Part shown: piece after piece, positions 1 through 18,965 of the stretch
Numbering within the stretch: the stretch's first letter is position 1
Layout of the letters: the number at the start of each line of letters is the position of its first letter
Virus record (IMG/VR): IMGVR_UViG_3300044609_000721
From: a virus
Length of the DNA stretch: 64,000 nt
Reading direction: 5' to 3' (one strand)
Program-made: the position numbers and the translations under genes
The notes under the pieces: model-generated
What the model was told of the DNA's origin: nothing
The model's input: only the letters and a program-made list of their open reading frames with translations
Databases searched by the model: none

Positions 1-2222
1 GGTTTATTAGTTCTCTTTCTAACTAGGGCGCTATATGCTGCAGATGCCTTTGGAGTTTTACCATAGGAACCTTCTGCTTCAAGAATTGCTTCAATATCTT
101 CAACATCTAGTTCATTTGCCATTAACCATTCTGCTTCTTCCAGAGTTTCTACATATCCTTCTGCACAAAGAAACTCAAGAACTGTATCAAAAATTTCATA
201 ATCTTCCTTAGAAAACTCACCCATTGCCTTTTGCTTACGAAGTTTCTTGGGATTCTTGGTTACTGAACCACCATGCCCTTCACCATCATATCCAGTATGA
301 CCATATTCATCAGCACCTCTGGACCAATTTCTACGAGCTTGATCCATTGGACCTCTCGAACCATGACGATTATTGCCACTTGCTAGTCGGTTCTGTCTGC
401 TTGCGTGCTTTTCTGCTGCCTTTACTTTTTTGGTTTTCTCACCTCTTTGTGAATACTCACTTGCAGGTTTACGCATTCTACTAAGAGTCAGTTTGCTCAT
501 TGCAGATCTGGCCTTTGGAGTTTGTCCATAAGAACCTTCTGCTTCCATAACAAGACTATACAATTCTTCGATTTCATCTTCGTCTAGATCTTCCATTAAC
601 TCAAAGAACTCATCTTCATTTTGGATGATTCCTTCAGCATATAACCAATCTGCAACTACCTCTACATCAGAAAGGAATTGTGCTTCTTCATCGAGAACTT
701 CCTCATCGAGTTGCTCAGCAGTATCATTGATTACTACTTGATCTTCTTCAAAGATAACCTCGAATCCATCTTCGATAGCAGCGATTACTTCACGAACCTG
801 CTCCTCTTCGTATCCTTCTAGGATCATGTCTGCTGCTAGTTCAGCATACTCTTTCATAGGAACACAGTTAGGAACTTCCTTACCACCCTTCTTCTTCATA
901 CCAACCATTTCATATCCTTTCCAGCAAGGGCCTTGCTCTTCATCAAGTTCAACTTCTTCCTTATTATATGCTTTCCAAGCAGTAGCGTAAGCAATACCCT
1001 TTTCCTTTTCGGATACACCACCTTTCTTATAACCTGCCTTGATGTGCTTAACCATACGCTCATACTTAGCGCCTGGAGGTGCCTTCTCTTCGATCTGCTC
1101 TACTTCTTCATTACGAATCTGACTGAGAAGATTATCGAGATTACTCTTTGACTTTTTCTTAGCGGTTGCTGCCTTTGCCGCTGGTTTCTTAGCAGCAGGT
1201 TTTGCTTTTGGTGGAGTGGATTCACTTCCTTTCCATGGATCCGCTGGTTTTTCTGCTGGTTTCTTAGCAGCAGGTTTTGCTGCTGGTTTTGCAGCGGGAG
1301 CAGACTTACCTCTACCCTCATCGTATCCTGCCTTTGCAGTCTTAACAACTTTACCTGCTGCTTTACCAGCACCGCGAATTGCTTTCTTTAGACCAGACTT
1401 GAGACCAGAAGCAATTCTTCCTAGAAGACCAGGACGCTTGGTTCCAGTTGCAGTTTTCGATCCAGTGTTAGGAGAATCTTTCGTTGAATCATCTCTTTCT
1501 CTTCCACCAGGAGCATCCTTAGATGCTGCAGATGCTTTCTTATATCCAGCAACAGCAGATCCAGCAACTTGACCAGCAGCACCCGCTACTTTCTTAGCAA
1601 CTGCTTTGGCACCAGAAGCAACTTTCTTTACAGCAGTTTTTACTTTTGCAAGTCTGCTAGGTCTGCTTACTTCTGAATTAGAATCGTGTCCAACAGTTAC
1701 CTTTGCTTCCTCAAGGTAGGTTAGTTCTGACTCAATATGCTCAATTAGAAGAGTTTCAAGTTCATCAATCTCAAAACCTTCTTCTAGAGTTTCGTAGAAA
1801 AATTCTTCAACAACTTCTTCGATGAGAGTGTCAGAAAGGAAAATAACTTCTTCATCAGTTAGTTCATCAAGAACAGATGAGAAATCTACAGACTCCTTCT
1901 TCTCTTTTTCATCTTCCTTCTCTTTCTTAGCCTTCTTCCCCTTCATTTCATCATCTTCTTTTTCATCCTCATCATCTTCTTTTTCAACTTCTTCTTTCTT
2001 CATTGCCTTTTTAATGGCACGATCCTTCACACCAGCATATTCGTGCGACTCATCTTCTACGGTTCCGTCGCCATCATAGTCCTTCGATTTCTTTCCAGAC
2101 TTCTTATACTTCTTCTCTTGGTCTTCACCAGCATCATTTTCATCTTTGGTTTCTTCGGACATATATCCGATTTCACCCAAGATATCCTCAATACCAGAAA
2201 GTTTAAAATTGTTGGTAAACAT
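1..2222 (-). CDS. Large modular acidic/basic protein, probable internal head (core) polyprotein; partial, runs off the window start
   Basis: ATG at 2222 (MFTNNFKLSGIEDILGEIGY...). My hand translation found no stop down to position 1, which is why it is absent from the ORF track. Contains KDYDGDGTVEDESHEYAG, K/A/P-rich repeats, CWKGYEMVGMKKKGGKEVPNCVP and two EAEGSYGxTPKA modules separated by acidic linkers. CTAAATA late promoter at 2256-2262. Confidence 0.8.
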   Translation of the reverse strand, partial: MFTNNFKLSGIEDILGEIGYMSEETKDENDAGEDQEKKYKKSGKKSKDYDGDGTVEDESHEYAGVKDRAIKKAMKKEEVEKEDDEDEKEDDEMKGKKAKKEKEDEKEKKESVDFSSVLDELTDEEVIFLSDTLIEEVVEEFFYETLEEGFEIDELETLLIEHIESELTYLEEAKVTVGHDSNSEVSRPSRLAKVKTAVKKVASGAKAVAKKVAGAAGQVAGSAVAGYKKASAASKDAPGGRERDDSTKDSPNTGSKTATGTKRPGLLGRIASGLKSGLKKAIRGAGKAAGKVVKTAKAGYDEGRGKSAPAAKPAAKPAAKKPAEKPADPWKGSESTPPKAKPAAKKPAAKAATAKKKSKSNLDNLLSQIRNEEVEQIEEKAPPGAKYERMVKHIKAGYKKGGVSEKEKGIAYATAWKAYNKEEVELDEEQGPCWKGYEMVGMKKKGGKEVPNCVPMKEYAELAADMILEGYEEEQVREVIAAIEDGFEVIFEEDQVVINDTAEQLDEEVLDEEAQFLSDVEVVADWLYAEGIIQNEDEFFELMEDLDEDEIEELYSLVMEAEGSYGQTPKARSAMSKLTLSRMRKPASEYSQRGEKTKKVKAAEKHASRQNRLASGNNRHGSRGPMDQARRNWSRGADEYGHTGYDGEGHGGSVTKNPKKLRKQKAMGEFSKEDYEIFDTVLEFLCAEGYVETLEEAEWLMANELDVEDIEAILEAEGSYGKTPKASAAYSALVRKRTNK
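52..545 (-). repeat. Two imperfect direct repeats (about 52-80 and 517-545) encoding EAEGSYG(Q/K)TP
   Basis: ggagttttaccataggaaccttctgcttc vs ggagtttgtccataagaaccttctgcttc. Confidence 0.8.
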
Positions 2223-16886: not shown

Positions 16887-16913
16887 AAAAAACGGGGGGA
16901 TTGACTCCCCCCA
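16887..16913 (-). terminator. Terminator after the SLH-barrel gene
   Basis: GGGGGGA-gtcaa-TCCCCCC followed by GTTTTTT on the minus strand. Confidence 0.75.
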
Positions 16914-16927
16914 GTATTATATCAGAT

Positions 16928-17806
16928 TCAGAACTTAAAGCCAAGACCCGTGGTGAACACGGGGGAATAAGTTCCGTTAGTAGCACCATAACTGTTAGCA
17001 GCATTGGTGGTAGGGAACTTCAGATCAGCGAAACCAACCAAAGAGTTGGTCAGACGACCTTCAACACCCAGAGCAAGCACAACTTGACCACGATCACCCA
17101 CAGCGGACTGATAGTTAACTTGTGCATCATTCACGAAAGGAACTTGATAACCAACACCAGTGTAGATGTTAGCACGACTCACACCAGAAGCGGCGCGAGA
17201 GATACTCCAATCGTAGGAGAGCAGAGCACCACCAGCAGTGCCAATGTTACCAGAGGGACCAGCAGCGGCATTCAGGTAGGGGCGGATAGACACAGCATTT
17301 TGGTTGCTGAAAGTCTTAGCAGCATAACGAGCTTGCAGAGTAGCACCAGAGATAGTGCGATCAGCAGTATAACCGTTACCAGCAACACCTTGCTTATTCA
17401 GCAGAACACCAGCACCGAGATAGTTACCCACGCCTTGTGCTTTCTGGGCAGCAGCGGTTTCAAGGGCACCCACACGGGCGTTGGTGGCACCGATCTCCTT
17501 AGCGAACTCAGCACGCAGAGCGGCAGCGAGAGCGGCGTCAGCGGCGGTCTGGAACTCGCTGATGCGGTCCAGACAAGCATTCGTCAGAGCGGCAAGTTCA
17601 GCACGGGTAGCGGGTTGGCCAGGTTGGAAGGTGCGGTTAGGATAACCAGCAACACAACCATAGCGTTCCACCAGATTAGTGATCGCTTGATAGGACCACT
17701 GAGTAGGTTGAACATCACTCAGTTGCTTCACACTGGTGACTTGTGCCATAGCAGGAGCAGCAGTGGCGGCAACTGCAGCGGCAGCAATAAAGGAACGAAT
17801 CATCAT
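16928..17806 (-). CDS. Cyanobacterial-type outer-membrane protein: signal peptide, SLH domain and short beta-barrel (porin-like)
   Basis: MMIRSFIAAAAVAATAAPAMA signal peptide. QVTSVKQLSDVQPTQWSYQAITNLVERYGCVAGYP...NACLDRI matches the SomA/SomB-type SLH N-terminus. Ends in GLGFKF. Start reassigned to 17806 (292 aa). Confidence 0.85.
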   Translation of the reverse strand: MMIRSFIAAAAVAATAAPAMAQVTSVKQLSDVQPTQWSYQAITNLVERYGCVAGYPNRTFQPGQPATRAELAALTNACLDRISEFQTAADAALAAALRAEFAKEIGATNARVGALETAAAQKAQGVGNYLGAGVLLNKQGVAGNGYTADRTISGATLQARYAAKTFSNQNAVSIRPYLNAAAGPSGNIGTAGGALLSYDWSISRAASGVSRANIYTGVGYQVPFVNDAQVNYQSAVGDRGQVVLALGVEGRLTNSLVGFADLKFPTTNAANSYGATNGTYSPVFTTGLGFKF

Positions 17807-17867
17807 AGTTTTGTTTTTCAATAAAGGACTTGTGTTAGATCTACCCAAGGGAGGATTAACCTCCCAC

Positions 17868-17896
17868 AGTATATCAGAAAGGAGATGCTTCGTCAA
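17868..17896 (-). promoter_or_regulatory. Sigma70 promoter for the SLH-barrel gene, followed by a 5' hairpin (17849-17865)
   Basis: TTGACG-aagcatctcctttctga(17)-TATACT; GGGAGG-N5-CCTCCC hairpin. Confidence 0.75.
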
Positions 17897-18965
17897 CCGT
17901 GATTTCGGGTTCGGTAGTTTCAGCATTCTCATCAACCTTGGAATAGAGTTCCAGGAAAGATTGTTTGGTGTCAGTGTCAAAACGATTAACACACACCTCA
18001 ATCGCTTTTTTACGCTTGCCGAAGATCTTATATGCACTGGCAATATGAACCAGTCGGCGGGTGCTGATAATTTCATCAACACCACCATCATAGAAGGTCT
18101 TACGAATTACCTGTGCCCACTTCACAAGTTTCTCGGCAAACTCATCATCTTGACCCTCAAGTGCTTTCTGGAGGATCTTGATTTCAGTTTTTTCAGTGGG
18201 ATATTCCTGCTCAAAGGTCACAGGGAAACGCTCAAGGAACGCTTCATTCAGAACGTTTGTGCCAATAAAACGGCCGTCATCGGAACCCTTACCTTTTGTG
18301 TTGGCAGTGGCAATAATGGTGAACCCAGGAGCAGGAACAATATACTCACCAGTCTTCTTCAGATAAAGACCTTTACCCTCAAGAATAGACTGGAGACACA
18401 TGATCTTGTTAGAAGCAAGGTCAATTTCATCCAGAAGCAAAACCCCACCACGGCGAAGTGCTTCAATCACAGGACCGTTGTGCCATACAGTTTCACCGTT
18501 CATCAGACGGAAACCACCGATAAGATCATCCTCATCAGTTTCAATGGTGATGTTGACACGAATCAGTTCACGCTTCAGTTGAGCACATGCTTGCTCCACA
18601 CCGAAAGTTTTACCGTTACCAGACAGACCAGTGATGAACACAGGATAGAACTGCTTAGACTGAATGACTTTCTTCAGATCAGAAAAATTCCCGAACGAGA
18701 CAAAATCAGCATTCTTAGCAGGAATATAGGACATTTGTTCCCGAACGGGTTCAACAGCAGGGGCGGCAGAAGGAGCAGCAAAAGTATCTTCCAGTTGCTC
18801 AATCGTCAGTTTCCACTTTCCACGACCAACTTTATATTGCTCCAATTTCTTGGTAATGGTTTGGTAAGTCATGCCGACCTCAGTAGAATAATTACGGAGA
18901 TCAGCAGCGGAAAGTTCAGTCCCGTAGCGAGAAGTAAGATCAGAGAGATTCATGTGTTTTGCCAT
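17874..18965 (-). CDS. cobS: CobS-like / MoxR-family AAA+ ATPase
   Basis: GLSGNGKT, LLDEID, ATANTKGKGSDDGRF.G...LNEAFLERF. Confidence 0.9.
   Translation of the reverse strand: MAKHMNLSDLTSRYGTELSAADLRNYSTEVGMTYQTITKKLEQYKVGRGKWKLTIEQLEDTFAAPSAAPAVEPVREQMSYIPAKNADFVSFGNFSDLKKVIQSKQFYPVFITGLSGNGKTFGVEQACAQLKRELIRVNITIETDEDDLIGGFRLMNGETVWHNGPVIEALRRGGVLLLDEIDLASNKIMCLQSILEGKGLYLKKTGEYIVPAPGFTIIATANTKGKGSDDGRFIGTNVLNEAFLERFPVTFEQEYPTEKTEIKILQKALEGQDDEFAEKLVKWAQVIRKTFYDGGVDEIISTRRLVHIASAYKIFGKRKKAIEVCVNRFDTDTKQSFLELYSKVDENAETTEPEITVDEASPF

Follow-up and report, generated by a model that had tools for sequence, protein, structure and literature searches.

A cyanophage family joining a porin-type SLH anchor to a small unrelated barrel, a candidate outer-membrane-to-wall tether

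In a 64,000-nucleotide (nt) stretch of viral DNA (IMG/VR record IMGVR_UViG_3300044609_000721; hereafter, the window), which is that of a T4-like cyanomyovirus, we analysed the gene for a 292-residue protein, here called the SLH-barrel protein, and found it to be a chimera: its SLH domain and coiled coil are of porin type, and the barrel that follows them has no detectable homology to porins. A tether between the outer membrane and the cell wall is the reading that fits this anatomy best: on balance, we consider it probable that the protein is a homotrimeric, non-conducting outer-membrane protein that is anchored through SLH to a wall polymer, that is, a phage-specific tether and a miniature OmpM/Som. 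The family is already known (it has been in GenBank since the deposit of the S-PM2 genome) and the window gene is a further member. New here are the lack of relationship between its barrel and porin barrels, the apparent restriction of that barrel to phages, forms without the SLH domain, a homotrimer model, a conserved outer loop, a recurrent position beside a tRNA-Gly gene, a mixture of promoter types, and explanations for the GC (guanine plus cytosine) excess of the gene and for misleading product names.

A porin head and stalk on an unrelated barrel

Homology to porins is confined to the N-terminal part of the protein. Profile comparison (hhalign) of the family with 21 cyanobacterial SLH/OprB porins gave 99.9% probability and 61% identity over residues 24–117 and nothing beyond, and residues 23–135 are 55–61% identical to cellular SLH/OprB porins of 512–745 amino acids (aa), an identity too low for a recent capture. 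Against the complete porin of phage S-SRM01 (492 aa), the BLASTP alignment ended at approximately residue 134, and the barrel profile matched the porin profile with a probability of 0.2%; on these two grounds, a shortened porin barrel was rejected. None of 31 aligned family members matched the OprB barrel family (PF04966) at E ≤ 1, and a phmmer search of 1.84 billion cluster representatives with residues 120–292 returned 18 proteins, none of them a full-size porin. Three of these 18 (P0124, P0128 and P0132; 183–210 aa) consist of a signal peptide and the barrel without an SLH domain, indicating that the barrel is a module in its own right. The preliminary description of this gene had proposed a chimeric build and had held SomA/B-type porins to be much longer; the profile comparisons bear out the former, and the full-size porin relatives, at 492–745 aa, the latter. 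Separately, in one metagenomic protein (P0127; 384 aa), the SLH domain, stalk and approximately the first four strands (66% identity in that part of the barrel) lead into an unrelated C-terminus of ~185 aa, through either domain swapping in nature or an error of assembly.

These comparisons bear on the possibility that the gene is just a porin acquired from a host, as the S-CREM1 homologue is annotated ('iron uptake porin'), or that it descends from such a porin by decay. The protein does pass the NCBIfam model of that name (NF033921, por_somb; 101.2 bits versus a cut-off of 100), and S-SRM01 has a full porin. However, the cut-off is reached on the N-terminal SLH/stalk module alone, with residues 23–160 aligning to profile positions 1–149 of 485, such that the SLH and coiled-coil part of the model is present and a full-length match is lacking; passing on this module may explain the product name in S-CREM1. 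This coverage, the lack of an OprB match, the barrel-to-porin profile comparison and the count of eight strands versus 16–18 all contradict a plain porin, and the 120 listed relatives at 80–100% identity, with intact frame and C-terminus, argue against decay, making either form of this explanation hardly credible.

The fold of the C-terminal domain was modelled with AlphaFold2 from a 31-row alignment, which placed a helix at residues 88–124 and eight strands between residues 129 and 291 (Table 1), with a predicted local distance difference test score (pLDDT) averaging 81–94 in the ten-residue blocks that are mainly strand. About eight strands ending in Phe had been counted in the preliminary description, whose eight strings correspond one-to-one to the modelled strands; the C-terminus reads G-F-K-F, and the strand count is well under the 14 that had been named as incompatible with a mini-barrel. 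The signal peptide, SLH domain and coiled coil that it listed were likewise recovered, as a hydrophobic leader with a predicted cut between A-M-A and Q, as a Pfam SLH match (PF00395) at residues 30–72 (E = 1e-10; 41.9 bits versus a cut-off of 20.8) and as the helix. The SLH profile is also matched by 27 of the 31 aligned members, and a terminal F or W is retained in 29 of them. Both the signal peptide and the aromatic C-terminus were assigned by direct reading of the sequence, not by a dedicated predictor; the signal peptide segment has a pLDDT of ~30, and no other long segment varies as much in the family (entropy 0.71; this and the other conservation values come from 121 sequences, namely the query and the 120 listed matches, which are 80–100% identical to it).

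Eight-stranded outer-membrane barrels topped both structure searches, and the model has the strand count and topology of that class (the fold of the OmpA transmembrane domain, OmpW, OmpX, Ail and PagL), with both ends periplasmic. None of the curated families PF13505, PF01389, PF03922 and PF06316 matched at E ≤ 1 in the 31 members, so the likeness is one of fold only. Language-model look-alikes (OMP_b-brl, Opacity and PagP clusters at 0.89–0.90) serve as a lead only. Among viral fold matches, the predicted structure of the S-PM2 homologue came first and a 156-aa barrel from S-CBWM1 second. Identity with the Pfam family Phage_OMP (PF24653/IPR056410) was rejected in favour of a separate family: just 1 of the 31 members matched (E = 0.24), and nothing in S-PM2, S-CREM1, S-SRM01 and two IMG/VR genomes matched PF24653.

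Table 1 Features of the SLH-barrel gene, its product and its surroundings
Feature	Position	Strand	Remarks
SLH-barrel gene	16928..17806	(-)	292 codons + TGA
Signal peptide, residues 1–22	17741..17806	(-)	Hydrophobic N-terminus; predicted cleavage; read from sequence
SLH domain, residues 23–87	17546..17740	(-)	
Stalk helix, residues 88–124	17435..17545	(-)	AlphaFold2 helix; trimeric coiled coil in model
Eight-stranded beta-barrel domain, residues 125–292	16931..17434	(-)	C-terminal G-F-K-F
Barrel strands (residues)	129–139, 150–165, 171–182, 188–204, 210–223, 241–251, 256–265, 283–291		AlphaFold2
Sigma70-like promoter motif TTGACG-17-TATACT	17868..17896	(-)	TG before -10; consensus scan, 10/12 matches
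5' mRNA hairpin	17849..17865	(-)	Six GC-rich pairs; RNA fold; predicted mRNA 5' end
Intrinsic terminator motif	16887..16913 (hairpin 16913..16893)	(-)	8-bp G/C stem, 5-nt loop, six T; -16.1 kcal/mol
Second promoter-like site TTGGCT-17-TATAAT	16916..16944	(-)	With TG; last codons of SLH-barrel gene; consensus scan
~115-aa secreted protein, copy in L004	5501-5848		Pfam DPBB_1 (RlpA-like)
~115-aa secreted protein, copy in L091	7310-7654		Pfam DPBB_1 (RlpA-like)

Three copies of residues 23–292 were modelled together as a homotrimer. The model scored 0.75, compared with 0.00 for the best of three controls. Among proteins of known structure, 20 of 30 determined as pairs attained this mark, as did 1 of 23 determined as single chains; as the similar OmpM complex is already solved, this pass may partly reflect memorization by the predictor and shows likeness, not proof. 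The runs agreed in at least 86% of contacts, with partner pLDDT of at least 77, and the confident interface comprised SLH residues 36–80 and stalk residues 82–119 at every third to fourth position, with few contacts involving the barrel. An interface almost wholly within the module shared with porins is also what a dominant-negative role would predict, in which the phage chain uses its SLH domain and coiled coil to take the place of pore subunits in host porin trimers and alters permeability or porin-dependent adsorption, and the identities to cyanobacterial SLH/OprB porins given above (residues 23–135 by pairwise comparison, residues 24–117 by profile) would suit such 'poisoning', which the preliminary description had put forward. 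Stalk length varies, however (13 residues shorter in S-PM2, and by 4 or 7 in distant members), which would throw a mixed trimer out of register; OmpM barrels pack together in solved trimers (8bys), which the small barrel could not do; and co-assembly is impossible for the barrel-only forms. We regard co-assembly as improbable.

Distribution among cyanophages

A word-index search yielded 1739 matches with E ≤ 0.001 among 8000 candidates scored, a mixed set, of which the best 120 listed, from metagenomes, are 288–318 aa long and 80–100% identical. Relatives are encoded by 133 stretches among IMG/VR viral contigs, and 80 loci were retained. Two isolates carry the family, S-CREM1 (SCREM1_199; 81% identity over 292 aa) and S-PM2 (S-PM2p168; 72%), and S-SRM01 carries its true porin in place of the SLH-barrel gene. 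Every informative genomic context of the family is that of a cyanophage. The distant member P0130 lies near genes for ribonucleotide reductase and a SegE-type homing endonuclease, pstS and psbA; P0124, P0128, P0132 and P0133 are set in runs of short same-strand open reading frames, and the surroundings include an HNH endonuclease for P0124 and a methylase for P0132. The single match in 185,579 species genomes is a 7.9-kb contig (CAYVOK010000080.1; L010) binned to a metagenome-assembled genome of an uncultured Acidimicrobiaceae. It is most likely a piece of cyanophage that was binned wrongly, because the 104-aa gene (orf104) and gp45 adjoin the SLH-barrel gene there. No cellular member was found by phmmer among the 1.84 billion representatives or in the 185,579 species genomes, although no profile search over cyanobacterial genomes was made, and as far as can be seen the barrel is phage-only.

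The position of the gene differs among lineages. In the window, the upstream neighbour is a cobS/MoxR-like ATPase gene (17874..18965), and the downstream neighbours are the 104-aa gene, followed by those for the sliding clamp gp45 and the clamp loader gp44. The nearest isolate, Synechococcus phage S-CREM1, shares this gene order over a 6.4-kb stretch at ~80% DNA identity, and the cobS/gp45 position was found only in S-CREM1 and the window's own lineage. Elsewhere, the SLH-barrel gene directly follows tRNA-Gly(TCC) in a phage tRNA cluster (30 of the 65 distinct loci, S-PM2 included; L001 3818-3931), with a short hairpin and TAAATA between the two genes. This adjacency was considered as a codon supply and rejected, as GGT accounts for 25 of the 30 Gly codons.

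At least 15 loci also encode, 0.15–2.7 kb upstream of the SLH-barrel gene, a secreted protein of ~115 aa (the copies in Table 1 and, by tblastn to these, in L013, L027, L034, L035, L040, L042, L044, L074-L076, L078 and L083). The gene for this secreted protein and the SLH-barrel gene may form a loose envelope module; tblastn found no match to it in the 64-kb window.

Transcription signals and base composition

The preliminary description had presented the gene as a stand-alone early transcription unit with its own sigma70 promoter and terminator. At the level of motifs, the claim of a promoter and terminator of its own stands for the window, and both recur in S-CREM1, with the two promoter hexamers at the equivalent place (the spacer has diverged) and an equivalent terminator hairpin and T-run. 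The -35 hexamer lies inside the last codons of the cobS/MoxR-like gene, and the TG ahead of the -10 is part of that gene's TGA stop. In the promoter scan, 4 sites were found versus 2.5 expected in shuffles, so that the TTGACG-17-TATACT match alone is weak; the terminator scan found 6 versus 1.2. Where the mRNA is predicted to begin, S-CREM1 carries a hairpin in the place equivalent to that of the window's, with 7 bp and a differing sequence, and such a hairpin may stabilize the transcript; in the window, the stability of the hairpins is unremarkable relative to shuffles (z = -0.58 for the 5' hairpin, and -0.75).

As a trait of the family, the early unit did not hold. Of the 52 distinct upstream regions, 29 have only the T4-late-like motif TAAATA, 13 have both types, 6 (including the window's) have only the sigma70-type motif and 4 have neither, such that TAAATA occurs in 42 of the 52 (30–38 nt before the ATG in the TAAATA-only cases). 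In a 2010 review, transcripts of S-PM2p168 were reported as early and abundant, among the earliest and strongest in S-PM2 (PMC2984593). The promoter motifs by themselves do not fix the timing of expression. One lake-water metatranscriptome contained only fragments, mostly 90–95% alike and hence from relatives. A 264-nt contig from it (17604-17867; one mismatch; depth ~2) reaches to within one base of the -10 hexamer and was not counted as evidence of transcription, since contigs cannot mark a transcript start and carry-over of DNA is possible.

Downstream, a second promoter-like site in the last codons of the gene stops 3 nt short of the terminator stem, and the stretch ATCTGATATAAT is identical in S-CREM1. 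A transcript from this site would lack most of the 5' arm of the terminator and could therefore read through to the 104-aa gene and gp45, which the site may feed. In the first 60 nt 3' of the stop codon of homologues, eight loci (L013, L020, L021, L025, L034, L038, L064 and L085) have TTGACA in the loop of the terminator hairpin and TATACT or TATAAT after the T-run, an arrangement that reads as a putative compact terminator-plus-early-promoter module and resembles the promoter/stem-loop cassettes of T4-type phages.

The raised GC content noticed in the preliminary description is real, at 0.529 for the gene overall and 0.51–0.57 along it, compared with 0.36–0.41 in the flanks. As a mark of recent transfer or foreign DNA, it was rejected, because the excess is carried by codon positions 1 and 2 (GC1 0.63 and GC2 0.53, versus 0.44–0.56 and 0.28–0.37 in five neighbouring genes) and position 3 is close to the neighbours (GC3 0.43 versus 0.32–0.42). 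In many related loci, the GC3 of the gene is under the GC of the flanks. The excess is instead due to an Ala- and Gly-rich composition (19.2% and 10.3% of the protein, respectively). Codon choice is strongly biased, both for Gly (as above) and for Ala (GCT in 38 of 56 codons), which would be compatible with high expression.

Candidate functions and known systems

If the protein is a tether, the precursor would be exported via Sec and lose its signal peptide by a cut after A-M-A, the last 168 residues would enter the outer membrane of the host and form a closed barrel of eight strands with the usual aromatic C-terminus, and three chains would unite through a three-helix coiled coil, placing three SLH domains as one head on peptidoglycan-linked polysaccharide, as in SLH porins. 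In the window phage, unmodified host RNA polymerase would transcribe the gene from its own sigma70-type promoter into an mRNA with the 5' hairpin and the intrinsic terminator. The surface of the infected cell would thereby gain a non-conducting, wall-anchored protein, from which the phage might benefit either because the envelope is held together over a long latent period or because an altered surface is poorer in adsorption or injection by further phages. The closed lumen in this scheme is suggested by columns that are invariant down to 33% identity, including R160, R175, D199, Y215, E249, K263 and K291; by strand alternation, these residues would face the lumen, pointing to an OmpA-like barrel whose interior is filled and braced by salt bridges. 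The tether had been put forward in the preliminary description, and it has gained from the homotrimer model as well as from its fit to the anatomy; the protective or exclusion role offered there was not new, having been proposed for S-PM2 (PMC2984593).

Several points weigh against a tether. Placement of family members in the outer membrane and on peptidoglycan is something we infer, and outer-membrane proteins are long-lived, so the need for extra tethers in an infected cell is unclear. The SLH-less proteins P0124, P0128 and P0132 show that the barrel is useful by itself, so that tethering cannot be the whole function. Mean pLDDT of the whole model is 68.6, with the SLH and stalk blocks at 53–70. 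Among the best structural matches, OmpA shares its rank with OmpW and OprG, both carriers of small hydrophobic molecules, and the family-invariant prolines P176 and P265 lie in or at the end of strands, both of which leave room for a lateral channel. A small barrel of the OmpW/OprG kind would pass small hydrophobic or other solutes as an aid to uptake by the infected cell; given the putative filled lumen described above, we rate such a channel as very unlikely.

The conservation of the barrel bears on a different function, in which surface masking or superinfection exclusion would be primary: the barrel and a conserved outer loop would bind a phage-receptor component of the host surface, as lambda Lom is reported to bind LamB, and the SLH stalk would only fix and multimerize them. 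Variability is greatest in the predicted outer loops L1 and L2 (entropy 0.75 and 0.94), whereas the C-terminal part is near-invariant (0.01 for beta7, 0.18 for loop L4 at residues 266–282 and 0.10 for beta8). Ten of the 17 positions of L4 are invariant, a conservation similar to that of the best-kept strands and unusual for an outer loop of a surface protein, which hints at a specific contact. Barrel-only forms would also suit masking, as would an early, strong promoter of the kind typical of exclusion genes such as T4 imm and sp. Precedents are the Lom–LamB case, as cited in a recent preprint (bioRxiv 10.64898/2026.10.24.761521), and the equivalent idea proposed earlier for S-PM2, in which the homologue would protect against infection or grazing (PMC2984593). 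Masking as the primary function is nonetheless unlikely in our estimation.

A wider proposal joins several of these elements: the cyanomyovirus mini-tether, a captured porin head and stalk on a phage-only barrel, would co-assemble with host SLH porins or displace them at wall-binding sites, reseal and re-surface the outer membrane of the infected cell and so exclude later phages. This proposal is a doubtful one; if true, it would mean exclusion by envelope architecture, not by the blocking of one receptor. More broadly, the family is abundant and tightly conserved, and the structural reading of the protein as a wall-anchored trimer with closed mini-barrels makes a vague 'protective' idea testable, with a bearing on how cyanophages rebuild the envelopes of major marine and freshwater primary producers. 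The case of NF033921 further illustrates that a curated model passing its cut-off on one shared module can spread a wrong product name.

Among named proteins, the closest are the two isolate homologues. SCREM1_199 (S-CREM1; 'iron uptake porin') has the family membership, architecture, genome position and promoter hexamers of the window protein. S-PM2p168 ('putative S-layer protein') has the same architecture and differs in lying after tRNA-Gly(TCC) beside hli genes, in having TAAATA and not a sigma70 motif upstream, and in its shorter stalk. Both database names mislead: the porin name fails the tests above, and the S-layer name is unsupported by our findings, as only the SLH anchor is common to S-layer proteins and the remainder is a membrane barrel. 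The genome papers of S-CREM1 and S-SRM01 do not discuss the SLH-barrel gene.

Cyanobacterial SomA/SomB-type SLH/OprB porins share a homologous signal peptide, SLH domain and coiled coil, and presumably the same anchoring to the wall; they differ in length (514–745 aa for the proteins listed) and in their OprB barrel (PF04966), whereas the phage barrel is eight-stranded and without homology to theirs past residue ~134. OmpM of the Negativicutes is described as a channel for nutrients. Its solved chains (8bys, 8bym and 8bz2) are 428–435 aa long versus 292 here, and its barrel is larger, with 16 strands, whereas the phage barrel is small and probably closed. Lambda Lom and other eight-stranded phage proteins are small outer-membrane barrels of the infected or lysogenic cell for which a change of the receptor landscape has been proposed (bioRxiv 10.64898/2026.10.24.761521); unlike the SLH-barrel protein, Lom/Ail proteins have no SLH stalk. 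Among the 1,603 barrel proteins of huge phages in the same preprint (October 2026) are eight-stranded 'S-layer-associated' outer-membrane proteins, and receptor masking is discussed there with Lom as the analogue; that class may be the same as the SLH-barrel family. Finally, OmpA of Escherichia coli and the N-terminal domain of OprF have no sequence relation to the phage protein and differ from it in their reversed domain order, in carrying OmpA_C and not SLH, and in being monomers or dimers compared with a modelled trimer; by analogy, the phage protein may in effect work like OmpA with the order of its domains reversed.
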